Notes under the pieces: model-generated
Told to the model about the DNA's origin: nothing
Database searches by the model: none
What the model saw: the letters and a program-made list of their open reading frames with translations, nothing else
From: Acidimicrobiaceae bacterium
GTDB taxonomy: Bacteria > Actinomycetota > Acidimicrobiia > Acidimicrobiales > Aldehydirespiratoraceae
Assembly (NCBI GenBank): GCA_009837445.1
Contig: VXTM01000021.1
Coordinates: 118,767 to 182,766 of the forward strand
Length of the DNA stretch: 64,000 nt
Reading direction: 5' to 3'
Shown here: piece after piece, positions 1,568 through 58,654 of the stretch
Position numbering within the stretch: the stretch's first letter is position 1
How the letters are laid out: the number at the start of each line of letters is the position of its first letter
Program-made: the position numbers and the translations under genes

Positions 1568-2341
1568 CTACCGGCCCTTCGCGGCGCCGGTGCGGCGGAA
1601 GGTGACGCTCATCCGGGGCGGGGCGGAGGCAACCTTCGGTATCGAGTGCTCCCAGTCCTGCTGGCAGGAGCCGCCCATGACCAGCAGGTCGCCCGACGCC
1701 AGAGTGAACGAGCGGCTCCGGCCCCCGCCCACTGGCCTAAGTGTCCGCTCTTGTTCGCTGCGCTCACGGGCCGCTCGGGCCACGGCCTCGCCCGTATGGG
1801 CCGCATCCGCATGCCGACCCGCTCGGCCTCTGAGCAGGAACCGGCGGGGGCCTCCCAGCGACACGATCGCCACCACGGCGTTGGCGGGGTCGATCCCGAT
1901 CCGGTCACTGTGCCAGGCCACCGAGTCCCGGCCTCCGCGGTAGTAGTTGACCCAGACCGAGTTGAACCGGCAGCGGTAGCGGTCGCCCAGAGCCGAGGCC
2001 ATCTCGTCGATGACGGTGGGAACACCGACCGACCGGAGCCGCAGGTGGGCTCCCAGACGCGGTTCCTCCACCATCTGCCCGTACATCGGGCGCTCGGCCC
2101 GGGTCCACCGCAGCTCCGCAGCGAGATGCTCGAGAAGCTCGTCGCCGCCCTGCAGCCACCGGGTCGCCACCTCGATCCAGCTCCTGCCGTCCAGCTCCAG
2201 GTGCTCCACCGCCGCCGAGGCGTTCACGGCCGGCTGCCCCTGGGCGAACAGGTCACCCTGGAACGGCCCCACATCGGCCTGAGTGCCTGACCTGGTGCCC
2301 CATCTGGCGCCCGATCCTTTGCCCGATCCGGCAGTCGTCAC
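1568..2341 (-). CDS. alkB: AlkB-like Fe(II)/2-oxoglutarate-dependent dioxygenase (alkylation repair) carrying an in-frame repeat insertion of about 30 aa
   Basis: Motifs NYYRGGRDSVAWHSDRIG (HxD), DLLVMGGSCQQDWEHSIPK (distal His) and MSVTFRR. The start is uncertain: GTG at 2341 or GTG at 2272 (VGPFQGDLF). The loop between FLLR and SFTLASGDLLVM is about 30 aa longer than I recall for AlkB-family proteins and is encoded by repeat copy 1. Confidence 0.75.
   Translation of the reverse strand: MTTAGSGKGSGARWGTRSGTQADVGPFQGDLFAQGQPAVNASAAVEHLELDGRSWIEVATRWLQGGDELLEHLAAELRWTRAERPMYGQMVEEPRLGAHLRLRSVGVPTVIDEMASALGDRYRCRFNSVWVNYYRGGRDSVAWHSDRIGIDPANAVVAIVSLGGPRRFLLRGRAGRHADAAHTGEAVARAARERSEQERTLRPVGGGRSRSFTLASGDLLVMGGSCQQDWEHSIPKVASAPPRMSVTFRRTGAAKGR
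1743..1831 (-). repeat. Dispersed ~90-96 bp repeat, copy 1 (inside the alkB CDS, in frame)
   Basis: Reverse complement reads AGAGGCCGAGCGGGTCGGCATGCGGATGCGGCCCATACGGGCGAGGCCGTGGCCCGAGCGGCCCGTGAGCGCAGCGAACAAGAGCGGAC. It aligns end to end with copies 4, 5 and 6. Confidence 0.85.
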
Positions 2342-3964: not shown

Positions 3965-5205
3965 TGCGCAGGCTCCTGGTGAGGCGGACCCGGCGGTGGC
4001 TGAGCTTCGTGGTCGAGGCTGTGGGCCGCAGGCTGCGAGGGCTGTGCCGGGCGGTGGGCCAGGTCCGACCGCCGCTCCCGGACACCGGTGACCACGAGAC
4101 ACCGACGAAGTCCGTGCGGGCCTCGGTCCTGTCGGCGACCCTGTGCCTGGGGGTGGCCGCCCTGCTCGTCAGCGGCAAGATCGTGGAGATCGCCGACCGG
4201 CTGCCTCTGGGCCCGGATCGGGACCGCTGGCTGGAGGCAGCCACCGAGACCGACGACCTGGCCAACAGCGTGTCACTGAACCGTCCCTACGACCTGCTGC
4301 GCGACCTGCGGGGTGTCGGGGACGAGGCCGGCCAGCAGATTGATGTGATCGGCGACGTGGAGGACCTCCTGCAACCCGAGGCACCCACCGAGCCCGACCA
4401 GGCGATCGACGACGCCGGGGCGCCCAGCTCGTCGGGCGAGTCCCCGGTGGCCCCGACCACCACCGCGGCCACCCCAAGCCCGACCACCACGACGGTGCCC
4501 GAGGACCCGCCGGCCTACGTTCGCCCCGTGCCGGTGACGTCCGAGACTCCCCTGAGGGTCTGGGTGGCGGGCGACAGCCAGGCCCTCTACCTCGGGCAGG
4601 GCTTGAGGCGCGACAGCCCCCTCACGGACGTGATGGAGATAACCCTCGACCAGCGGCACTCCACCGGCCTGTCCCGTCCGAGCTACTTCAACTGGCCGGT
4701 TCACCTCTTCGCGATCGCAGGGACCTACAACCCCGAGCTGGTGGTGGCCACCCTGGGCAGCAACGACTGGCAGTCCATGACAGCGCCGGGCGGCGACCTC
4801 CTCGACCGGGGGACCGACGAATGGAACGCCGAGTGGTCCCGGCGCCTCGGCGTCCTCTTCGACGTCCTGAAGCCTCGTCACCGGCACGTGATCTGGGTCG
4901 GCCTGCCCCCGACCCGCCGCGACGACTTCCGGGAGGGCTACGCGCTCATGAACCAGCTGGCGGCGGCCGAGGTGGCGAAACGAGACTTCGTCTCCATGAT
5001 CGACATCTGGGACATGTTCGGCGGCGACGAGCCCTACCGCGACGCGGTCCCATCGCCCGACGACCCCGAGGGCAGGCCGGTGCTCGTTCGCCAGCAGGAC
5101 GGGGTGCACCTCAACCGGACAGGCTCGAGCTGGGTGGTGGGCGTGATCAGCGGCGAGATCCAGCAGATCATCGACAGGATCAGCCCCCAGAGGCCGAGCG
5201 GGTAG
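3964..5205 (+). CDS. SGNH/GDSL-type hydrolase (DUF459-like), membrane-anchored partner of the MBOAT
   Basis: The ATG at 3964 overlaps the MBOAT stop (TGATG). It has an N-terminal TM segment (LSATLCLGVAALLVSG) and a Pro/Thr linker. SGNH blocks are VWVAGDSQ, TLGSNDWQ and QDGVHLN. The last 5 codons (QRPSG-stop) are encoded by the repeat-head motif. Confidence 0.7.
   Translation: MRRLLVRRTRRWLSFVVEAVGRRLRGLCRAVGQVRPPLPDTGDHETPTKSVRASVLSATLCLGVAALLVSGKIVEIADRLPLGPDRDRWLEAATETDDLANSVSLNRPYDLLRDLRGVGDEAGQQIDVIGDVEDLLQPEAPTEPDQAIDDAGAPSSSGESPVAPTTTAATPSPTTTTVPEDPPAYVRPVPVTSETPLRVWVAGDSQALYLGQGLRRDSPLTDVMEITLDQRHSTGLSRPSYFNWPVHLFAIAGTYNPELVVATLGSNDWQSMTAPGGDLLDRGTDEWNAEWSRRLGVLFDVLKPRHRHVIWVGLPPTRRDDFREGYALMNQLAAAEVAKRDFVSMIDIWDMFGGDEPYRDAVPSPDDPEGRPVLVRQQDGVHLNRTGSSWVVGVISGEIQQIIDRISPQRPSG
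5189..5205 (+). repeat. Solo copy of the repeat 5' head (AGAGGCCGAGCGGGTAG) forming the C-terminus and stop of the SGNH gene
   Basis: Reads cAGAGGCCGAGCGGGTAGgcg. Compare copy 5 aAGAGGCCGAGCGGATAGgcg and the 46854 site tAGAGGCCGAGCGGATAGggc. Confidence 0.55.
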
Positions 5206-5213
5206 GCGTCGGG

Positions 5214-5762
5214 CTAGTTGTCGGTCGGGTTGCGGGGGTACAGCCGCAGCCGGTTCAACTCCCCGTCCTGGCGGGCCATGACCTCCCACCACAGCTCCTC
5301 GGGAGCCTCCGCGAACGGGTCGGAACCGTCATGCTCGAGCACGAACCAGGCATTCTCCTCCAGCTCGCCCTCAAGCTGGCCAGGAGCCCATGCCGCATAG
5401 CCGGCGAAGATGCGCACCTGGTCCAGCCCGCCGATGTCGCCCGGGTTCTTCTCCAGATCGATGGTGCCGATCCGGCCCACGACCTGTGACCAGTGGTCGT
5501 CGGCATCGTCGAGGGCCACCGACGCCAGCGCGATCACCGACGACTGGCTGACCGGCCCCCCGACGAACACCACGCGGGGCTCGCTCACCGCGGCGTCCCA
5601 CTCATCGATGGCTCCCTTGACGGTCAACTCGCTCGGTCGGTTGAGCACCACGCCGAGAGCGCCCTCTGCTCCGTGCTCAAGCATCAGCAGCACCGTTAGC
5701 CGGAAGTTCGGATCAGCCAGGCTCGGGGCGGCCACCAGCAGCTTGCCGCGAGTCGATTCCAT
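5214..5762 (-). CDS. YqgE/AlgH-family protein (UPF0301)
   Basis: Starts at ATG 5762 (MESTRGKLLVAAPSLADPNFRLTVLLMLEH...VVLNRP...VFVGGPV...IFAGYAGWAPGQLE-like). The longer track ORF upstream is Arg/His-rich and implausible. Confidence 0.8.
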   Translation of the reverse strand: MESTRGKLLVAAPSLADPNFRLTVLLMLEHGAEGALGVVLNRPSELTVKGAIDEWDAAVSEPRVVFVGGPVSQSSVIALASVALDDADDHWSQVVGRIGTIDLEKNPGDIGGLDQVRIFAGYAAWAPGQLEGELEENAWFVLEHDGSDPFAEAPEELWWEVMARQDGELNRLRLYPRNPTDN

Positions 5763-5882
5763 GCGTCGGGTCTTCCAGGTAGGGGACTGGTGGGAGCGGC
5801 ACGGTGACGATCCGGCAACCCGATAGCGGTGGCGGTGCGGCGGGGTGGCGGTGTGGCACCATCTAGGGCCGTGGTGTCGACC

Positions 5883-6692
5883 ATGCCGCCGGTGCTGCTC
5901 ACGATAGCCGCTTCGGACCCGTTGGGGGGAGCAGGCGTGCAGGCCGACCTGGCCACGTTTTCGGCTCTCGGCGTGCATGGTGCCAGCGCGCTCACTGCGG
6001 TGACCGCGCAGTCCCTGACCGCGGTCACGGCCTCCGATCCGGTTCAGGCGAGCCTGGTGGCCGCCCAGATCGACGCCGCCGCCGACCACCTCGGGGTGGA
6101 CGGAGCCAAGACCGGGCTGCTGCGCCGCCGTGAGATCGTGGAGCTGGTCGCCGACAGGATCGAGCGGGGCGTTCTGCCCGCGGTGGTTGTCGATCCGGTG
6201 ATGGTCGACGGCCGGGGAACACGCTTCGTGTCCGACGACGTCGAGGACGCCTACCGCCGGCGGCTGTTCCCGCTGGCTCGGGCAATCACGCCGAACCGGG
6301 GCGAGGCGGAGCTGCTGGCGGGCACGTCGCTGCCGAGTGCCGAGGCGGTGCTGGACTACGCTCAGACCTTCCGGAGGCTCGGCGCAGACGCCGTCGTGGT
6401 GACCGGCGGCGCCTTCGAGGGCGATCCCGACGACGCGGTGATCACCGCGTCGGGCGACGCCTGGATCGTCCGGAACACCCGGATAGCGACCGACAACGTG
6501 AGGGGCAGCGGCTGCACGTTCTCAGCCGCGCTGGCGGCCAACCTGGCCCTCGGCCGGGATCTGCGGGCAGCGGTGAGCGCGGCCGGGCGGTTCGTGCGCG
6601 ACGCCATCGGAGCCTCGGCCGGCTGGATCCTCGACGGTCCGGGCCCGGTGTCGCACGCCCAGGCTGAACAGCCAGGCGGATCGGCCGCCTGA
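5883..6692 (+). CDS. thiD: Hydroxymethylpyrimidine/phosphomethylpyrimidine kinase
   Basis: Motifs VLLTIAASDPLGGAGVQADL, KTGLL, VVDPVMV, ITPNRGEAELL and RGSGCTFSAALAANLA. The start could be ATG 5883 or GTG 5829. Confidence 0.8.
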   Translation: MPPVLLTIAASDPLGGAGVQADLATFSALGVHGASALTAVTAQSLTAVTASDPVQASLVAAQIDAAADHLGVDGAKTGLLRRREIVELVADRIERGVLPAVVVDPVMVDGRGTRFVSDDVEDAYRRRLFPLARAITPNRGEAELLAGTSLPSAEAVLDYAQTFRRLGADAVVVTGGAFEGDPDDAVITASGDAWIVRNTRIATDNVRGSGCTFSAALAANLALGRDLRAAVSAAGRFVRDAIGASAGWILDGPGPVSHAQAEQPGGSAA

Positions 6693-17106: not shown

Positions 17107-17592
17107 TCAGGCCGCAGTCTCGGTACCGGAGTCCGGCTCATCCGGAGGCGATTCCTCGCCATCCTCGGGCGGCTCCCAGTCGGCATCCTCCGGCATCGCC
17201 GTCTTCTCCTCGATGGGCTCCTCGGCCGCGCCCCGGAGCTCCTCATCAGCAGCCTTCAACGCCTCCTTGGACTCCTCGATGGGCTCCGCGGCCGCCTCAC
17301 GGAACTCCTTGTCGGCCGCCTTCAGGGTCTCCTTCATCTCCTTGATGGGCTCCTCGGCCGCCTCACGGAACTCCTTGTCGGCCGCCTTCAACGCCTCCTT
17401 GGACTCCTCCAGGGTCTCCTGCAGGGGCTGCGCGGCCTCTCGCAGCTCCTGCTGGAAGCCCTGCCCGATGCGGCGGACCTCGCCGACCACCCTGCCGATC
17501 TGGCGGATGGCAGGGGGCAGCTTGGTGGGCCCGAGCACGATCAGGGCGACGAGCAGGATTACAAGGACCTCTCCCCCGCCCAGATTTCCCAC
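17107..17592 (-). CDS. tatA: TatA/TatB-family translocase subunit with a repeat-expanded C-terminal tail
   Basis: N-terminus GGGEVLVILLVALIVLGPTKLP followed by an amphipathic helix. The C-terminal tail is built from 22-aa repeats. Confidence 0.8.
   Translation of the reverse strand: MGNLGGGEVLVILLVALIVLGPTKLPPAIRQIGRVVGEVRRIGQGFQQELREAAQPLQETLEESKEALKAADKEFREAAEEPIKEMKETLKAADKEFREAAAEPIEESKEALKAADEELRGAAEEPIEEKTAMPEDADWEPPEDGEESPPDEPDSGTETAA
17211..17408 (-). repeat. Coding tandem repeat, 3 x 66 nt, in the tatA tail
   Basis: Unit starts are at 17211, 17277 and 17343 (cgatgggctcc...). The peptide unit is approximately KEALKAADKEFREAAEEPIEES. Confidence 0.9.
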
Positions 17593-24561: not shown

Positions 24562-24693
24562 AGAGGCCGAGCCGGTGGGCCGCACCCAGTCGGAACGTCG
24601 CGAGGCCCACGGGCCCGAGCGGCCCGTGAGCGCAGCGAAGGTGAGCGGGATGCGGGCCCGAGCGGCCCGTGAGCGCAGCGAACAAGAGCGGGA
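24562..24693 (+). repeat. Dispersed repeat, copy 2 (dop-pup intergenic) with an internal 43-nt tandem duplication
   Basis: The head AGAGGCCGAGCCGG starts at 24562. The core GGGCCCGAGCGGCCCGTGAGCGCAGCGAA occurs at 24611 and again at 24654. The copy ends ...AACAAGAGCGGGA, 2 nt before the dop stop. Confidence 0.85.
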
Positions 24694-24695
24694 GA

Positions 24696-26213
24696 CTACG
24701 CGCCTGCGGAGCCCAAGCGTCGCAGCAGCTCCATCGCGGAGCCGCACTCGTCGAACATGTCGCCCACGTGTGCGACCGTTCCCCGGGCCGGCTCGGTCAT
24801 GGAGACCCGCCGCAGGGAGCCCTCGCCCACATCGAACACGATCGAGTCCCAGTTGGCCGCCACCACCTCGGCCGCGAACTTCTGCAGGCAGCGGCCCCGG
24901 AAGTAGGCCCGGGTGTCGGGCGGGGGCTCGGTCATGGCCCGGACGGCGGCGGCCTCGTCCACCAGAGTCTCCAGCCCGGCCCGGGCGGCCAGGGACCGGT
25001 CCGGGCGCAGATCGTGGTACTGGATGTCGAGGGCCCGCAGCCGGACGTCCTGGAAGTCGAGGCTGTGGCGGTCCCGGAAGCCCTCCAGGAGCCTGAGCTT
25101 GGCCACCCAGTCGATCTGACCGGCCAGCCCGGCCGGGCCGCGTTCCAGGCCGCCGAGCACGTCCTCCCACCGGGCCAGCACCTGGTGGGCCACCTCGCCG
25201 CCGGCCGCGTCGGCTCCCCGCTGCTCCACATAGGTGCGGGCCGCGGCCAGCAGCTCCCACTGCACGCCGAGAGCGGTGATGGTGGTGCCGTCGGCGAGCT
25301 CCAGCGGTTGGCGCAACTGCAGGTCGCGGCTCACCTGGCGCAGCGCGGCCACCGGCGCGGCGAACCGGAACTCGCGGGGCATTGCGTCGTCCTCGGTGAG
25401 GGCCATCACCAGCGCGGTCGTGCCGACCTTGAGGAAGGTCGCCACCTGCGACATGTTGGCGTCCCCGACGATCACGTGCAGGCGCCGGTACTTGGCCGCG
25501 TCGGCGTGGGGCTCGTCGCGGGTGTTCACGATGGGACGCTTGAGGGTCGTCTCCAGGCCGACCTCCTCCTCGATGAAGTCGGCCCGCTGGGAGATCTGGT
25601 AGCCGGCCTCGTCCAGGCGCATGCCGGAGGTCTCGCTGCCCATCTTGCCGGCACCGCAGAAGATCTGGCGGGTCACGAAGTGCGCGGTGGCGTGAGTGAC
25701 GATGCGGGAGAACGGCACGGCCCGGCTCACCAGGTAGTTCTCGTGGCAGCCGTAGCTGTTGCCCTTGCCGTCGGAGTTGTTCTTGTAGACCACGATCTCC
25801 TCGCCCGGTGGCAGCAGCATCCGGGCCGCCTCCATCGAGCGGGCCGCGATCAGCTCGGCAGCCCGGTCGTAGACGACCACCGAGCGGGCGTCGGCGCACT
25901 CGGGGGTGGACAACTCGGGATGGGCGTGGTCGACGTAGTAGCGGGCGCCGTTGGTGAGCACCGCGTTCACCAGGTGGGTCTCGATCTCGGGAGCGAGCGA
26001 CCCCGCCGGCGCGCCGCCGCGGGCGTCGTTGCCGGGGGTCTCGTCGGTGAAATCCCAGCCCACCGCGGCCCGGCCCGGCTCCGGCGCGTGACCGTGGGCG
26101 ATCAGGTAGGCGTTGATAAGCAGCGACGAGGCCGAGATGGGGTTGGGCTCGGAGGCTCCCCGGTGGACGATGCCGTACTCGGTCTCGAGCCCGAGCATCT
26201 TGGGGACAGCCAT
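24696..26213 (-). CDS. dop: Depupylase/deamidase Dop
   Basis: N-terminus MAVPKMLGLETEYGIV. It is a PafA paralogue of 505 aa located next to pup. Confidence 0.9.
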   Translation of the reverse strand: MAVPKMLGLETEYGIVHRGASEPNPISASSLLINAYLIAHGHAPEPGRAAVGWDFTDETPGNDARGGAPAGSLAPEIETHLVNAVLTNGARYYVDHAHPELSTPECADARSVVVYDRAAELIAARSMEAARMLLPPGEEIVVYKNNSDGKGNSYGCHENYLVSRAVPFSRIVTHATAHFVTRQIFCGAGKMGSETSGMRLDEAGYQISQRADFIEEEVGLETTLKRPIVNTRDEPHADAAKYRRLHVIVGDANMSQVATFLKVGTTALVMALTEDDAMPREFRFAAPVAALRQVSRDLQLRQPLELADGTTITALGVQWELLAAARTYVEQRGADAAGGEVAHQVLARWEDVLGGLERGPAGLAGQIDWVAKLRLLEGFRDRHSLDFQDVRLRALDIQYHDLRPDRSLAARAGLETLVDEAAAVRAMTEPPPDTRAYFRGRCLQKFAAEVVAANWDSIVFDVGEGSLRRVSMTEPARGTVAHVGDMFDECGSAMELLRRLGSAGA

Positions 26214-30913: not shown

Positions 30914-32083
30914 CTAGCGGGCCGGAGGTGCGTAGATCAGGCCGCCGTCGAGCCATCCGGCGTTGGCCGAGCCCTCGCGGGTCAGGCCGACCGGGTTCAG
31001 GTGGCGGGCGTAGATCTCGTCGTAGTTACCGACCTGGGCGATCACCTGGTAGAAGGCGTCGGGGGCCAGGCCCATGTTCGACTGCTGCTCATCGTCAGCT
31101 GCGCCGAGCAGGCGGGCCGCCTCTGCGTCGGGCGGGTTGGCCGCCATAGCGTCGACGTTGGCCGAGGTGATGCCCTTCTCATCGGCGATGATCGTGGCGT
31201 ACACGGTCCAGTTGACCACGTCCGCGAAGCGGGACTGGTTCTGACCGTAGGTCGGGCCCAGTGGCTCCTTGGAGATGGGCGTGGCCGGGAAGATCACCCA
31301 GTTCTCGCCGGCGGGCTGCTGGTTGGCCTTGCGGCCGACCAGGGCCGAGCCGTCGGTGGTGATGACGTCGCAGGCGCCGTTGATGAAGTTCTCGGTGACC
31401 TGGTCGAAGTCCTCGAACGTCGTGAGCTGAATCGAGATTCCGGCCGCATCGGCGGCATCGGCGATGTTCTGCTCGGTAGTCGTGCCGGCGTTGGTGCACA
31501 CCACCGCGCCCGCAATGTCGACCACCTGCGAGGCCCCCGAGAAGCCGGCGGACTCGCGCGCCATGAGCTGCTGGCCGTCGTAGTAGGTGGTCGGGCCGAA
31601 GTCCATGCCCACCTCGGTGTCACGGCTCTGCGTCCAAGTGGTGTTGCGCATCAGCACGTCCACCTCGCCCGTCTGCACCGCAGTGAACCGCTCAGCCGCG
31701 GTCAGCGGGGTGAACTCGACCGCGTTGGCATCGCCGAACAGCGCCGCGGCCACCGCACGGCAGTAGTCGGCGTCGAAGCCGGTCTGGGAGCCGTCGGGCT
31801 GGGTCTCAGAGAACGCCACCGCCGAACCGGACACGCCACAGTGCAGGTCGCCGCGGGCGAGGACCGTGTCGAGCAGGTCGCCTTCCTGGGTCACGATGAC
31901 CTCGTCGGCGGCAGTGGTTGTGGTCTCCTCCGGCGCCGCGGCCGTGGTCTCCGGAGCCGTAGTGTCTTCGGGCGCTGCTGTGGTGCCGGTGCCGTCTTCG
32001 TCGTCGCCGCAGGATGCAGCAATGAGCGTTACCGCGAGCATGACAGCGAGCACGCGCCAGACAAGAGCTTTCTTAAGAGTCAC
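30914..32083 (-). CDS. Amino-acid ABC transporter substrate-binding lipoprotein (AapJ-like), copy A
   Basis: GTG start with RBS GGAGGGAG. The signal/lipobox reads LAVTLIAASCG. It is about 75% identical by eye to the neighbouring copy B. Confidence 0.85.
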   Translation of the reverse strand: MTLKKALVWRVLAVMLAVTLIAASCGDDEDGTGTTAAPEDTTAPETTAAAPEETTTTAADEVIVTQEGDLLDTVLARGDLHCGVSGSAVAFSETQPDGSQTGFDADYCRAVAAALFGDANAVEFTPLTAAERFTAVQTGEVDVLMRNTTWTQSRDTEVGMDFGPTTYYDGQQLMARESAGFSGASQVVDIAGAVVCTNAGTTTEQNIADAADAAGISIQLTTFEDFDQVTENFINGACDVITTDGSALVGRKANQQPAGENWVIFPATPISKEPLGPTYGQNQSRFADVVNWTVYATIIADEKGITSANVDAMAANPPDAEAARLLGAADDEQQSNMGLAPDAFYQVIAQVGNYDEIYARHLNPVGLTREGSANAGWLDGGLIYAPPAR

Positions 32084-32200: not shown

Positions 32201-33358
32201 TCAACGCGCCGGTGGCGCATATATGAGGCCGCCGTCGCTCCAGCTTGCGTTGATCGAGCCGCGGGTCAGTCCCGCCGGCTCGAGGTGGCGGGCGAGGATC
32301 TCTCCGTAGTTGCCCACCTGCGAGACTGCCTGGTAGAAGGCGTCGGGAGCCAGGCCCATGGCTGACTGCAGCTCCCCCTCGCCGCCGAGCAGGCGGCGCG
32401 TCTCGGCGTCGGGCGGGCTGGCGACCATCTCGGCCACGTTGTCGGAGGTGATGCCCTTCTCGTCGGCGATGATCGTGGCGTAGACCGCCCAGTTGACCAC
32501 GTCACCGAAGCGGGACTGGTTCTGCTGGTACACGGGGACGAGGGGCTCCTTGGAGATCGGGGTGGCCGGGAAGATCACCCACTCCTCGTCGGCGGGCTGC
32601 TGCTTCGCCTTGCGCCCGGCCAGGGCCGAGCCGTCGGCCGTGGTCACATCGCAGGCGCCGGTGATGAAGTTATCGATGATCGTGTCGAAGTCCTCGAGCG
32701 TGGTGAGGGTGATGCCGATACCGGCGGCGTCGGCGGCGTCGGAGACGTTCTGCTCAGTCGTTGTCCCGGCCAGGGCGCACACCACCGCGCCGGCAATGTC
32801 GGCCACCTGCGACGAGGCGGAGAAGCCGTCGGACTCGCGGGCCATGAGCTGCTGGCCGTCGTAATAGATGACCGGACCGAAGTCCAGGCCCACCTCGGTG
32901 TCGCGGCTCTGGGTCCAGGTGGTGCTGCGAAAGAGCACGTCGATGTGGCCGGACTGCAGAGCCGCAAAGCGCTCTGCGGTGGTGAGCGAGACGAACTCCA
33001 CCGAGTCGGCGTCGCCGAAGATGGCCGCGGCGACGACTCGGCAGTAGTCGGCATCGATCCCGAAGACGCTGCCGTCTGGCTGGGTCTCCGAGAAGATCAC
33101 CCTGGTGCCGGAGACTCCACAGAGGAGCCTGCCTCGCGCTTGCACTGTCTGGAGGAGGTCAGCATCGCCCCGGTCGTCGACGGCATCGGCGGCCGTCGTA
33201 GAGGGTTGCTGGGCCTCCGACGCCGCCGCCGTTCCGGCCTCCGGCTCTCCGGTGAGCTCAATTCCTGCGGTGTCCTGCGGGTCGGGTTCTCCGCAGGCCG
33301 CCAAGGCAAGGGCGGCGGCCAACAAGGCTCCGAGCAGCCGAGACACTGTCAGGCTCAC
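32201..33358 (-). CDS. Amino-acid ABC transporter substrate-binding lipoprotein (AapJ-like), copy B
   Basis: I prefer the start GTG 33358 (VSLTVSRLLGALLAAALALAACG lipobox). The track start at 33406 lies inside repeat copy 3. Confidence 0.8.
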   Translation of the reverse strand: MSLTVSRLLGALLAAALALAACGEPDPQDTAGIELTGEPEAGTAAASEAQQPSTTAADAVDDRGDADLLQTVQARGRLLCGVSGTRVIFSETQPDGSVFGIDADYCRVVAAAIFGDADSVEFVSLTTAERFAALQSGHIDVLFRSTTWTQSRDTEVGLDFGPVIYYDGQQLMARESDGFSASSQVADIAGAVVCALAGTTTEQNVSDAADAAGIGITLTTLEDFDTIIDNFITGACDVTTADGSALAGRKAKQQPADEEWVIFPATPISKEPLVPVYQQNQSRFGDVVNWAVYATIIADEKGITSDNVAEMVASPPDAETRRLLGGEGELQSAMGLAPDAFYQAVSQVGNYGEILARHLEPAGLTRGSINASWSDGGLIYAPPAR

Positions 33359-33381
33359 GGCCGAACCGGCCGCAGCGTCTG

Positions 33382-33443
33382 TCCCGCTCTTGTTCGCTGC
33401 GCTCACGGGCCGCTCGGGCCACGGCCTCGCAAGCTAGGCCTCT
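33382..33443 (-). repeat. Dispersed repeat, copy 3 (truncated, arc stop / binding-protein B start intergenic)
   Basis: TCCCGCTCTTGTTCGCTGCGCTCACGGGCCGCTCGGGCCACGGCCTCGC followed by ...GGCCTCT. The CATAC-to-head middle part is missing. Confidence 0.75.
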
Positions 33444-45672: not shown

Positions 45673-46856
45673 CCGGTGCCGCCTACATCGTCGACGCGGT
45701 GCGAACGCCGGTCGGCAAGATCGGTGGGGGCCTAGCCGGGGTCCGCCCCGACGACCTGGCAGCCACCGTCATCGCGAACCTGCTCGAGCGCTCCCCCGGC
45801 CTCGATCCGGCCACCATCGACGATGTCCATTTCGGCAACAGCAACGGTGCGGGCGAGGAGAACCGCAACGTGGCCCGCATGGCCGCCCTGCTGGCCGGCA
45901 TGCCCACCTCGGTTCCCGGAACGACGGTCAACCGGCTGTGCGGATCGGGGCTGGAGGCCGTTGTCGGAGCCAGCCGGGCCATCGCGGTCGGAGACGCCGA
46001 CCTGTGCATCGCCGGCGGCGTCGAGTCGATGACCCGGGCTCCGTGGGTGGTGGCGAAGCCGGAGCGTCCCTACGAGCGCGGCCATCAGCAGATGCACTCC
46101 ACCACGCTGGGCTGGCGGCTGGTCAACCCGCGCCATCCTGATCGTTGGACGGTGCCTCTGGGCGAGGGAGCCGAGATTCTGGCCGAGAAGTACGCCATTA
46201 CCCGGGCCCTGCAGGACGGCTTCGCCCTGCGCAGCCATCAGAAGGCGGCCGCAGCCTGGACCCGCGGCGAATTCGCCGACGAGGTCGTGGGTGTCCATGG
46301 CGCCGAACTCGACCGCGACGAGACGATCAGGCCCGACACATCCCTCGACGGGCTGGCTCGGCTGCGACCGGTGTTCCGCCGCGACGGCTCGGTGACCGCA
46401 GGCAACTCCTCGCCCATGAACGACGGCGCCGCCGCGCTGCTGCTGGCATCCGAGGCCGGCCTCGCCTCGACGGGGCGGACACCCCTCGCGCGGGTGATGA
46501 GCCGGGCCGTGAGCGGCGTCGACCCGGATCTCTACGGCATCGGCCCGGTCGAGGCCGCCCGCACGGCTCTCAAGCGGGCCGGCATCGGCTGGTCGGACCT
46601 GGCCGCGGTCGAACTGAATGAGGCCTTCGCAGCCCAGTCACTGGCGTGTCTGGCGGAGTGGCCCGAGCTCGACCGGCGGATCGTCAACCCGCTGGGAGGC
46701 GCCATCGCCATCGGCCACCCCATCGGAGCCAGCGGGGCGCGCATCCTCACGACGCTGGCCCATCACCTGCGGCACCGGGGAGGCCGCTACGGCCTGGCCG
46801 CCATGTGCATCGGGGTCGGGCAGGGCATCGCGGTCACCATCGAGTCCTGCGCCTAG
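45669..46856 (+). CDS. Acetyl-CoA C-acyltransferase (thiolase II; PcaF-like by context)
   Basis: The GTG overlaps the LivM-like stop (GTGTGA). It has NRLCGSGLEAV (active-site Cys), NEAFAAQ, GHPIGASGARI and CIGVGQG. Confidence 0.85.
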   Translation: MTGAAYIVDAVRTPVGKIGGGLAGVRPDDLAATVIANLLERSPGLDPATIDDVHFGNSNGAGEENRNVARMAALLAGMPTSVPGTTVNRLCGSGLEAVVGASRAIAVGDADLCIAGGVESMTRAPWVVAKPERPYERGHQQMHSTTLGWRLVNPRHPDRWTVPLGEGAEILAEKYAITRALQDGFALRSHQKAAAAWTRGEFADEVVGVHGAELDRDETIRPDTSLDGLARLRPVFRRDGSVTAGNSSPMNDGAAALLLASEAGLASTGRTPLARVMSRAVSGVDPDLYGIGPVEAARTALKRAGIGWSDLAAVELNEAFAAQSLACLAEWPELDRRIVNPLGGAIAIGHPIGASGARILTTLAHHLRHRGGRYGLAAMCIGVGQGIAVTIESCA

Positions 46857-46975
46857 AGGCCGAGCGGATAGGGCGGCGTGGTCATTCCCGCTCTTGTTCG
46901 CTGCGCTCACGGGCCGCTCGGGCCACGGCCCCGCCCGTATGAACCGGGTTTGGCTCGCCTGCCCGCGGGGCCTCT
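46855..46975 (-). repeat. Dispersed repeat, copy 4: a full 96-bp copy in minus orientation (46880-46975) abutted by a plus-oriented solo head (46855-46872)
   Basis: TAGAGGCCGAGCGGATAGGG is followed by GGTCATTCCCGCTCTTGTTCGCTGCGCTCACGGGCCGCTCGGGCCACGGCCCCGCCCGTATG...CCCGCGGGGCCTCT. It fills the gap between the convergent thiolase and dioxygenase stops. Confidence 0.85.
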
Positions 46976-49578: not shown

Positions 49579-50393
49579 TCCGGCGCAGGCGCCTCCGAGA
49601 CTGGCAGCATGGCCAGGTTCGACCATTCGCGTGTCACCGCGGCCGCGGTGTCGAGCAGCGCGGGGAGGTACTCGCCGGTCAGGTGCTCGATGGACGTCTC
49701 GGCCGCGTACACGGTCACGTTCATGGCCGCCGCGATGCGGCACCCGTCGTCGCGCACCGGGGCGGCGATGGAGCGGATGCCGACCGTCAGCAGCTCGTCG
49801 GACAGGGCCCAGCCCCGCTCGCGCACGTCGGCCAAGTCCTCGTCCAACTGCGCCCGTGAGGGCACCACCCGCGGGATTATCCCCGACGTCGACGGCCGCT
49901 CCAGGACCGCGTCGAGCTCGTCGGCGGTGTGCTCCGACAGCAACACCTTGCCCATCGAGGTGGCTACCGCCGGGAAGCGGGTGCCGATGCTCACCGAGAG
50001 CGCGATGATCTTGGCCACCGGGACCCGGGCCGTGTACACGATGTCGCTCCCGTCGAGCTGCGACATCGAGCTCGACTCGTGCGTGCGGGCCACAAGGGCC
50101 ACCAGATGGGGACGGGCGACGTCCCACAGGCCCTGGGCCGCGATGGCAGCCGTACCGATCTCGAGGACCTTGGTGGTCAGCGAGTACGCGCCGCCCACGG
50201 AGCGGACGTATCCGAGCTGTTCAAGGGTCATCAACAGCCGCCTGGCGGTGGGCCTGGCCAACCCGGTACGGGAGGCCACCTCGCTGACGGTCAACTCGAT
50301 GGCGGTGGGGCCGAATGCCTTGAGGACGTCGAGGCCCCGGGCCAGAGCCTCCACGAACTCGCGCCGCCCCCTCTCCTCCGCCGCCGGGCTCAT
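49575..50393 (-). CDS. IclR-family transcriptional regulator (PcaR/PobR-like by context)
   Basis: The N-terminal wHTH reads FVEALARGLDVLKAF...LTVSEVASRTGLARPTARRLLMTLEQLGYV. The C-terminal part is an IclR effector domain. Confidence 0.85.
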   Translation of the reverse strand: MSPAAEERGRREFVEALARGLDVLKAFGPTAIELTVSEVASRTGLARPTARRLLMTLEQLGYVRSVGGAYSLTTKVLEIGTAAIAAQGLWDVARPHLVALVARTHESSSMSQLDGSDIVYTARVPVAKIIALSVSIGTRFPAVATSMGKVLLSEHTADELDAVLERPSTSGIIPRVVPSRAQLDEDLADVRERGWALSDELLTVGIRSIAAPVRDDGCRIAAAMNVTVYAAETSIEHLTGEYLPALLDTAAAVTREWSNLAMLPVSEAPAPD

Positions 50394-50420
50394 GACACGA
50401 ACCCGGTCGTCGAGCCGGCC

Positions 50421-51620
50421 ATGACTGCGGAGACCCGGGCCACCGACCCTTCAGCGACCGGCACGGCCGCTGAGACTGCCCCGCTCGACGGGATCCTCGT
50501 CGCCGACCTGTCCCGGGTGCTGGCCGGGCCGTACTGCACCATGCTCCTCGCCGATCTGGGGGCGACGGTCATCAAGGTGGAAAGCGCGGCCGGCGACGAC
50601 ACTCGGGCTTGGACCCCGCCGGAGAAGGACGGCATATCGACTTACTTTATGTCCATCAACCGGAACAAGCGGTCGATCGTTCTGGACTTCCGCGACCCAG
50701 ACGACGTGGCGCTGGTCCACGAGCTGTTCCGGCGGGCCGACGTGGCCATCGAGAACTTCAAGCCGGGTGCGCTGGCCAAGTTCGGGCTCGACTACGAGAC
50801 TGCCCGGGCCGTCAATCCGGCCCTCATCTACACCTCGATCAGCGGTTTCGGCACGGCCGAGGGTGCGTCGCTGCCCGGTTACGACCTGGTGGTGCAGGCC
50901 GTGTCGGGGCTAATGAGCCTCACCGGCGACGCCGACGGCCCCGCCTACCGGGCGGGCATCTCGGTGTTCGATGTCATGACCGGGCTCCACGCCACCATCG
51001 GGATCCTGGCCGCCCTCCACCACCGCAGCCTGACCGGCCAGGGCCAGTTGGTGGAGCTGAACTTGCTGTCGTCGGCGCTGTCGGGCCTCGTCAACCAGAC
51101 CGGCGCCTATACCGCTTCGGGGACCGTGCCCCACCGAATGGGCAATGCCCACCCGAGCGTCTACCCCTACGAGGTGATACCGGCCAAGGACCGGGACATG
51201 ATCATCACCGCCGCGAACGACCGGCAGTTCAAGGCCCTGTGCGAGGTTCTGGGCATCGGCGAGCTGGCTACCGACGAGCGATTCAGGCTCAACGCCGACC
51301 GCACCCGCAACCGTGACCAGATGCACTCGCTGCTCATGGAGCGGGTGGCCCAATGGAACGCCGACGACCTCTTCATCGCCCTGAACGACGCGGGAGTGCC
51401 CTGCGGGCCCATCAACTCCATCCGCGAGGGCATCGAACTGGCCGAGCGTCTCGGCCTCGAGCCCAGGGTGACCCTCGGCGCCGGCGACGAGAGTGTCGAC
51501 CTGGTGCGCAATCCCATCGGGTTCAGCAATGCCTCGCTGCGCTACGAGCACCCGCCCCCCGGACTGGGAGAGCACAGCGACGACCTTCGGGACTGGCTGT
51601 CCAAGAGGCCGAGCGGATAG
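50421..51620 (+). CDS. Family III CoA-transferase (CaiB/BaiF family)
   Basis: Segments LDGILVADLSRVLAGPYCTMLLADLGATVIKVE, ENFKPG and SGFG. The last 5 codons (KRPSG-stop) are encoded by the head of repeat copy 5. Confidence 0.85.
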   Translation: MTAETRATDPSATGTAAETAPLDGILVADLSRVLAGPYCTMLLADLGATVIKVESAAGDDTRAWTPPEKDGISTYFMSINRNKRSIVLDFRDPDDVALVHELFRRADVAIENFKPGALAKFGLDYETARAVNPALIYTSISGFGTAEGASLPGYDLVVQAVSGLMSLTGDADGPAYRAGISVFDVMTGLHATIGILAALHHRSLTGQGQLVELNLLSSALSGLVNQTGAYTASGTVPHRMGNAHPSVYPYEVIPAKDRDMIITAANDRQFKALCEVLGIGELATDERFRLNADRTRNRDQMHSLLMERVAQWNADDLFIALNDAGVPCGPINSIREGIELAERLGLEPRVTLGAGDESVDLVRNPIGFSNASLRYEHPPPGLGEHSDDLRDWLSKRPSG

Positions 51621-51699
51621 GCGAGACGATGCGGCCCATACGGCGCGAGGCCGTGGCCCGAGCGGCCCGTGAGCGAAGCGAACAAGAGCGGGAATGACC
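51604..51699 (+). repeat. Dispersed repeat, copy 5 (best full-length reference copy, 96 bp)
   Basis: AGAGGCCGAGCGGATAGGCGAGACGATGCGGCCCATACGGCGCGAGGCCGTGGCCCGAGCGGCCCGTGAGCGAAGCGAACAAGAGCGGGAATGACC. Confidence 0.85.
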
Positions 51700-51793
51700 C
51701 CCTGTCGGCGCGAGGCGCTTGCACCTATCCGCGTGGCCCCTACGCCGCAGCCCGACACATAGACAGCCGAATTACCGATCACGGGAGCGGGCA

Positions 51794-52591: not shown

Positions 52592-52609
52592 CTGCGGGCA
52601 GCCGCCCAG

Positions 52610-52623
52610 CTGCTCGGCCTCTA
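52610..52623 (-). repeat. Solo repeat-head-like motif on the minus strand (TAGAGGCCGAGCAG) whose TAG is the protease stop codon
   Basis: The plus strand reads ctgctcggcctcta. It lies between convergent stops at 52591 and 52621. Confidence 0.4.
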
Positions 52624-58499: not shown

Positions 58500-58588
58500 A
58501 GAGGCCGAGCGGTTGGCGGCGAGCCCAGCCCATACGGACGAGGCCGTGGCCGAGCGGCCCTCAGGTCGCAGCGAACCAGAGCGGGACC
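58500..58588 (+). repeat. Dispersed repeat, copy 6 (diverged)
   Basis: AGAGGCCGAGCGGTTGGCGGCGAGCCCAGCCCATACGGACGAGGCCGTGGCCGAGCGGCCCTCAGGTCGCAGCGAACCAGAGCGGGACC. Confidence 0.75.
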
Positions 58589-58654
58589 GGGGTGGCCTGT
58601 TCGAAGTCCTCCTACACTGCCGCCAAATCCGCTCGTGCCTCCGGAGAGCCGACC

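Follow-up and report, generated by a model that had tools for sequence, protein, structure and literature searches.

A small non-autonomous transposon (MITE) has very probably landed in a TNA site within a surface loop of an alkB gene, with the reading frame kept and the gene under selection. The gene lies near the start of a 64,000-nucleotide stretch of DNA, which we call the window, from an Acidimicrobiia MAG (phylum Actinomycetota) that comes from sponge metagenomes. A sequence-only reading of the window had claimed that a repeat copy was inserted in frame into an AlkB-like dioxygenase, adding about 30 residues to a loop in the manner of the Rickettsia palindromic elements (RPEs). We believe the core of that claim is right. 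One of the borders given for the insert is not, and the history of the insert is less simple than the presence of a single copy would suggest.

The host gene is an intact ORF of 257 amino acids at 1568-2341 on the minus strand, and it encodes an AlkB/ALKBH2-3-like Fe(II)/2OG dioxygenase. It matches the Pfam family PF13532 (2OG-FeII_Oxy_2) with E=1.5e-18 and carries both the HxD...H iron triad and the RxxxxxR motif that binds 2OG. In an alignment of 59 homologues H144, D146 and H232 are invariant, and R243 and R249 are nearly so. Both its sequence and its predicted fold place it nearest, among solved proteins, to human ALKBH3 and ALKBH2. The ORF reads ...WHSDRIG...SLGGPRRFLLR-GRAGRHADAAHTGEAVARAARERSEQERT-LRPVGGGRSRSFTLASGDLLVMGGSCQQDWEHSIPK... 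with no stops and no frameshifts, and the motifs quoted earlier as flanking the insert (HSDRIG...LGGPRRFLLR upstream, LRPVGGGRSRSFTLASGDLLVMGGSCQQDWEHSIPK downstream) do stand in one frame. A protein identical to this AlkB (P0001) is recorded from 7 contigs under the name AlkB, Acidimicrobiaceae MAG, which argues against an assembly artefact. The extra loop length put forward in the first reading is also real: the distance from SLGGPRR to GDLLVM is 49 aa in the window and 18 aa in 99 among the 120 best homologues.

Comparison with empty sites places the inserted MITE copy at 1741-1830 on the plus strand. It is a short form of 90 nt, made up of the family core, one arm and the terminal repeat of that arm; it is without the other arm and keeps one of the two terminal repeats of a full element of about 135 nt. 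Counting one extra copy of the 3-bp TNA target, the gene is longer by 93 nt (31 aa). On the minus strand the insert is translated as residues about 171-201, GRAGRHADAAHTGEAVARAARERSEQERT. The near-invariant 37-nt core CCGCTCTTGTTCGCTGCGCTCACGGGCCGCTCGGGCC occupies 1745-1781 (plus strand, the minus strand encoding ARAARERSEQER), and the terminal inverted repeat CCGACCCGCTCGGCCTC occupies 1814-1830 (plus strand). The filled and empty alignment and the TNA statistics given below identify TGA at 1831-1833 (plus strand; TCA on the coding strand) as one target-site copy. The second is TAA at 1738-1740 (plus strand; TTA on the coding strand), and its middle base is a synonymous Leu position. The sequence-only reading had drawn the repeat at 1701-1832. 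The insertion itself is there, but the left border is wrong: the 37 nt at 1701-1737 are host sequence (RSRSFTLA...) that merely resembles a terminal repeat.

The strongest evidence that this segment was inserted comes from relatives. We fetched eight alkB loci (L121-L128) with 3-kb flanks, and the neighbourhood MBOAT-alkB-SDR-Pyr_redox-trpA is complete in seven of them, L122 being without the MBOAT gene. Orthologues in this conserved synteny, at 85-92% identity, are without exactly this segment, also at the DNA level, which bears out the claim of a tolerated in-frame insertion. The empty site reads CTGCTGAGGCC in L127 and L131 and CTGCTCAAACCC in L123. The sequence-only reading would have failed if relatives free of the repeat carried a homologous loop of the same length or if the window gene held a frameshift. 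No loop this long is present in two outgroup orthologues or in the other homologues with the 18-aa spacing, and the window alkB has no frameshift.

The filled sites differ from one another in length. L121 has a full element, CTGC[TCA]GAGGCC...135 nt...GATC[TCA]GGTCC, with a gain of 138 nt, and the gain in L122 is 141 nt. The window and L128 gain 93 nt each. Trimmed alleles are found in L124 (+30 nt), L125 (+18 nt) and L126 (+3 nt), and all three remnants start with the element end AGAGGCCGAGCG. Every length state at the site (empty, +138/141, +93, +30, +18, +3 nt) is a multiple of three. All of the insert-bearing alkB genes belong to one clade. The target in this clade is CTNAGG, and the two outgroup orthologues have TTGCGG (TTGCGGCCC), which holds no TNA, so a synonymous CGG-to-AGG change in the clade probably created the target.

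The insert belongs to a family of repeats, as had been claimed. The 37-nt core recurs elsewhere in the window, and the number of chance matches expected for a 50-nt probe from the alkB copy is zero. We count 162 copies in about 1 Mb of sequence from sponge-associated Acidimicrobiia MAGs, six of them in the window. A scan with 31 nt of the core, using one genome per species, matched at least 120 stretches; the matches listed are all Acidimicrobiia MAGs, from sponge-associated Ca. Poriferisodalis, Ca. Aldehydirespirator and relatives. Searches for the family in Rfam found no match, either for the whole window at the gathering threshold or for a full copy at E<=1. Neither was there a Pfam match to the inserted segment or a match to the family in the plasmid collection.

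The family has the properties of a MITE: it is small, it has no capacity to encode a transposase and its many copies are dispersed. Sixty complete copies define terminal inverted repeats of about 18 nt, GAGSSNNGCGGATAGG ... CCTATCCGCTCGGCCTC, and the commonest full lengths are 135, 146 and 111 nt. A target duplication is seen when the empty CTGCTGAGGCC is set against the filled CTGC[TCA]...[TCA]GGTCC. Across the family, TNA flanks the left end in 28 of 59 copies and the right end in 20 of 59, against about 3% expected. It stands on both sides in 12 copies, with the same middle base in 8 of these against 3.7 expected (p~0.02). The family-wide statistical support for target duplication is moderate, and the T..A of the flanks could in part be repeat-end sequence. 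What is unusual for a MITE is that the core is conserved above the terminal repeats. From genus to genus it hardly changes, whereas arms and terminal repeats show 20-50% variation. DNA folding of full elements is weakly better than that of shuffled sequences (z=-2.1 and -1.5), and the core taken by itself folds no better than its shuffled versions (z=+0.6 and +0.7).

The other five copies in the window show how varied the family is. The copy at 33380-33442 (plus strand, core at 33384) is a short form in the 36-nt spacer between two minus-strand ORFs. An intergenic copy lies at 46856-46974 (plus strand, core at 46888), its right end being approximate. The full-length copy of 136 nt at 51605-51740 (minus strand, core at 51655) has both terminal repeats and overlaps the stop of the ORF at 49929-51620. 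The copy at 24563-24698 (minus strand) has its core duplicated in tandem with a 43-nt period (cores at 24612 and 24655), and that at 58501-58590 (minus strand, core at 58548) has the variant core GCGACCTGAGGGCC, which is also present in L022 and L042. In these three unrelated loci GCTGCGACCTGAGGGCC replaces GCTGCGCTCACGGGCC, and we read this core variant as a subfamily, not as random decay, going by its recurrence.

Armless head-to-tail arrays of the core, with a 43-45-nt period and from 2 to at least 4 units, are seen at 24563-24698 in the window, L081 ~1555-1725, L086 ~5574-5700 and L059 ~5821-5950, and a database ORF, P0149, contains a 22-aa repeat eight times over. It would appear that the core can multiply without the terminal repeats. 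Solo ends resembling the terminal repeat (...CCGCTCGGCCTCTAG/TGG), with no core nearby, occur at 52605-52621 and 5190-5206 in the window and at L095 ~720-830 on the minus strand, where a 34-nt unit ending in the terminal-repeat motif stands in three tandem copies. The window has other repeats as well. Stretches of about 300 and 115 nt at 30976-31401 recur at 32260-32682 with a spacing of 1281-1284 nt and 81-84% identity, and the two regions have the look of paralogous genes in tandem. At 17153-17416 there is a further tandem repeat, of period 66 nt (three overlapping 132-nt copies at 70-76% identity), which is probably a repetitive coding region.

We propose the following sequence of events. 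A non-autonomous element would have landed in the TNA within the Leu-Arg codons (CTN AGG) of the alkB surface loop and duplicated these 3 bp on insertion. The 135 nt of the element and the 3 bp of the duplication would add 138 nt and preserve the frame. One strand and frame of the element is free of stops and would encode a hydrophilic, helix-prone peptide rich in Arg, Ala and Glu. The product would thus be an AlkB still read in frame, its flexible loop enlarged, from a gene that selection maintains. The 90-nt form of the window could be a 45-nt in-frame deletion of the full insert or the insertion of a member that was already short.

The reading frame is kept for simple arithmetic reasons. 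The commonest element length together with the duplication, 135 nt of consensus plus 3 bp, comes to 138 nt or 46 codons, which is divisible by three. Two of the six frames of the consensus are fully open, and the alkB frame (GRADRRANPAHTGEAVARAARERSEQERE...) is open in those common variants in which GTGTCTC lies beside the core. The TNA straddles two codons (xTN Axx), so the duplication itself cannot make a stop.

It is likely that the family was moved by a transposase. Copies in the spacer between alkB and the SDR gene vary in presence, and those in L124, L125 and L126 differ in position and orientation. The spacer copies are full length and lie at 3643-3836 in L124, 3616-3818 in L125 and 3616-3794 in L126; one adjoins the alkB stop codon, and another is inside what was ancestrally the 3' end of the reading frame. 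The spacer has no copy in the window, L121-L123, L127 or L128. Neither in the 64-kb window nor in about 1 Mb from 131 loci did we find an autonomous partner or a transposase, and one may lie elsewhere. Paired repeat ends 0.4-3 kb apart were considered as a candidate autonomous IS and rejected, as they enclose host genes alone.

The gene that received the insert still looks functional, judging from the catalytic residues it keeps and from the purifying selection on it. In all pairwise comparisons dN/dS of the host part is 0.11-0.25, and between pairs of insert-bearing genes it is 0.11 (window and L128) and 0.17 (L121 and L122). We would expect the insert-bearing AlkB to keep its enzymatic activity. 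In the AlphaFold model most 10-residue blocks of the host jelly-roll have pLDDT 81-97, with lower values at the termini and around 141-150. The insert (172-203 in the model) has pLDDT 43-61 and is modelled with a helix at 184-196 between the strands 166-172 and 209-214. The loop placement given in the first reading agrees with the model, in which the insert is a low-confidence loop between two jelly-roll strands.

The loop in question is perhaps not an indifferent place. The insertion follows R171, 27 residues past the first iron-binding His, and R198 of human ABH2 stands at the same spacing. In ABH2 this residue opens a flexible loop (R198, G204, K205) that contacts the undamaged strand (PMC10377887). 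By alignment the insert loop of alkB would be the counterpart of the DNA-contacting loop R198-K205 (PMC10377887). The loop of ALKBH3 at the insertion position is longer, and the site appears to be a naturally variable surface loop that may touch DNA. Since the loop would match one that contacts DNA in ABH2, the insert is not obviously neutral, and an effect on substrate binding is possible.

The main disagreement among the readings we weighed is over whether the alleles at this site come from one insertion or from several. Either origin is something that we infer. The difficulty is plain in the comparison of the window with L128 (3001-3705). Their inserts differ at 1 of 87 nt, and their host genes differ by 12.5% (dS 0.46). 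On the upstream side mismatches begin again 9 nt from the insert, and on the downstream side they do so at the bordering target-site copy. We considered recombination as the source of these nearly identical inserts and rejected it: there is no flanking homology tract, and mismatches within a few bases of both borders rule out ordinary homologous exchange.

The reading that we place first, tentatively, is that the site is a hotspot hit repeatedly by family members, or that inserts have been overwritten by ectopic gene conversion; the alleles would then not form a single decay series. A near-identical 90-nt insert in diverged hosts and dissimilar inserts in close hosts are what it predicts. L124, L125 and L126 point the same way, with three independent insertions no more than about 20 nt from the stop codon of alkB, and so does the likeness of the empty target, CTGAGGCC-GCGGG, to the element end, CTCAGAGGCCGAGCGGG. 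Against this, no second copy with the same arm sequence is found among the 162 copies or in the metagenome scan. Two insertions of the identical short form with one terminal repeat would also require that this putatively mobile form really move, and the junctions of the window and L128 are identical.

Slightly less probable in our opinion, and to be regarded as doubtful, is a single full-length insertion, made long ago in the clade's ancestor and only inherited vertically since then. The 93, 30, 18 and 3-nt alleles would be products of in-frame deletion, and the empty ones would have lost the insert by precise excision at the target duplications. It is in favor of this account that the insert-bearing genes all fall in one clade and that the CTNAGG target is confined to it. 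The window form aligns to that of L121, with the junction AGTGT common to both, and the 28% difference between the inserts of L121 and L122 is near the neutral expectation for dS=0.48. The inserts are nevertheless discordant with the host tree, as the window and L128 show (1/87 nt against 12.5%). The host sequence of the window is nearest to the empty L123 (dS 0.18), and L128 is nearest to L124, with 8 of 36 nt different between the L124 remnant and the insert of L128. Short forms without the same arm also recur elsewhere (e.g. PolA L103, L030, L095), which again counts against a single insertion.

A third idea goes further, and we regard it as speculative and rather unlikely. The family might be something other than a passive MITE: the element might re-target or convert a site that resembles its own end, a kind of homing, and might have been shaped to encode an innocuous or useful Arg-rich helical loop. 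The idea draws on three things taken together: the conservation of the core over the ends, the alkB inserts that are discordant with their hosts and the use of a stop-free frame. The intragenic copies all use one of three potentially stop-free frames, and three of the five known protein hosts (AlkB, PolA and PriA) are enzymes of DNA metabolism.

Readings in which there is no tolerated insertion fare far worse. A decaying pseudogene, with an open frame that is a coincidence of high G+C, is very improbable. High G+C does give many long spurious ORFs, and many shadow ORFs are present here, but dN/dS is 0.11-0.19 in the comparisons with insert-bearing alleles, the catalytic residues are all kept, seven independent length states are each a multiple of three and the structure model is confident in its host part. 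The least credible reading, that the segment is a lineage-specific functional loop extension, a small domain or an intein-like element and not a mobile repeat, can appeal to the predicted helix and to the DNA contact of the ABH2 counterpart loop, but it is refuted as an origin by the same DNA occurring about 160 times, mostly intergenic, oriented either way and bounded by terminal repeats and target duplications, without splicing motifs or an Rfam or Pfam match to the segment, although a gain of function after insertion is possible.

The tolerated insertion of a MITE into alkB is not an isolated case. We screened six frames around the 162 copies for element-spanning ORFs with coding-type codon composition on both flanks. 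Four cases emerged, all in the same strand and frame: AlkB, PolA (L103), an XdhC-like protein (L090) and PriA (L018). The peptide ...EAVARAARERSEQER... is read in these four and in a Wzy_C O-antigen ligase. Orthologues of the PolA at 91% identity are shorter there by exactly 23 residues; in one orthologue that is more distant, a diverged insert occupies this position. The PriA has about 42-46 extra residues in its Cys-rich region compared with solved PriA. The ligase (P0162) is the sole clean internal insertion from a profile search of 1.84 billion representatives, which gave 99 matches, mostly spurious ORFs of <100 aa. Clusters in this database are represented at 50% identity, so insert-bearing alleles of conserved proteins are hidden from the search. 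It also showed C-terminal read-through into the element in IspD, a LacI-type protein and SecF, and an apparent ABC-transporter fusion was rejected as two genes joined across an open intergenic copy. A search of a word-indexed protein database with the peptide of the element consensus gave only short ORFs, 28 in all, without AlkB itself among them, and cannot serve as a census.

Intragenic copies make up about 2.5% of those sampled. The rest are intergenic, often within operons and adjoining stop codons, as in the ribosomal protein operon of L075, where a copy at ~2650-2800 lies between rpsH and rplF directly after the rpsH stop. Copies between antisense shadow ORFs in the same frame can give the appearance of gene disruption; we rejected these because their flanks are adjacent operon genes (e.g. 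rpsH-rplF in L075). No disruptive intragenic copy was seen among the 162, which fits the idea that selection removes all but the intragenic copies in a permissive frame. Dozens of deposited ORFs of 30-100 aa (P0121-P0148 and most of the profile matches) are the open frame of intergenic copies (...EAVARAARERSEQERE...), and such short ORFs are annotation noise specific to these MAGs.

The comparison with RPEs made by the first reading is a good one at the level of behavior. In alkB the frame is kept, orthologues without the insert exist and the host is under purifying selection; polA too has empty orthologues. The same family in the same frame, encoding the same peptide, is found in several unrelated proteins: besides AlkB these are PolA, PriA, the XdhC-like protein and the Wzy-type ligase. 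RPEs (Ogata et al., as summarised in PMC10969869) are likewise repeats of ~100-150 bp found in frame in unrelated housekeeping genes whose products look functional, to which they add a conserved peptide of ~30-50 aa at sites compatible with the fold.

It is important to separate behavior from descent. The hosts of RPEs are AT-rich obligate intracellular alphaproteobacteria, whereas the host here is a high-G+C Acidimicrobiia sponge symbiont, and there is no sequence relation between the two as far as can be judged from host, G+C and the absence from Rfam. Nearly half of the copies are intragenic in the RPE families that insert into ORFs (PMC10969869), against ~2.5% of the sampled copies here. 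The Acidimicrobiia family also differs in its clear terminal repeats and TNA duplication, and in that its most conserved part is the internal 37-nt core. Membership in the RPE family proper is implausible given the host phylum, the G+C content and the lack of an Rfam match.

Elements of the IS5 family and the PIF-Harbinger type, which by the ISfinder descriptions make 3-bp TNA target duplications, are possible relatives. They would share with our family a 3-bp TNA target within CTNAG and ends that start with GAG; they differ in that a transposase gene with matching ends was not found in the window and 131 loci.

Other MITEs behave in related ways. A 2024 review calls the in-frame fusion of intragenic MITEs to host ORFs 'not unusual' and names RPEs, QMITE1, ERIC, BOX and the Anabaena MITEs, with RPEs as the extreme case (PMC10969869). 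QMITE1 of Coxiella burnetii is also non-autonomous, with terminal repeats, target duplications and occasional read-through in host ORFs (PMC5896051). Intragenic ERIC, BOX and Anabaena MITEs likewise belong to non-autonomous families with terminal repeats and target duplications, which are mostly intergenic and occasionally read through in host ORFs (PMC10969869). All of these differ from ours in family and lineage, and here there are graded in-frame remnants together with a verified empty site.

A literature search of limited coverage found no report naming such elements in sponge Acidimicrobiia. The RPE type of behavior is known; its occurrence in sponge-associated Acidimicrobiia is a new lineage for it. 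Insertions compatible with protein are thus extended to a high-G+C lineage of sponge-associated Actinomycetota. The natural series at this one site is unusually complete, with an empty state, a full state and four trimmed in-frame states, and it shows a loop insertion tolerated and then pruned while the gene was under selection throughout. For those who annotate such MAGs, the inserts inflate protein lengths and seed spurious small ORFs, and the typing of sponge-symbiont strains could make use of the presence/absence polymorphisms. The features most worth following are the conserved core and the decoupling of the insert phylogeny from that of the host.
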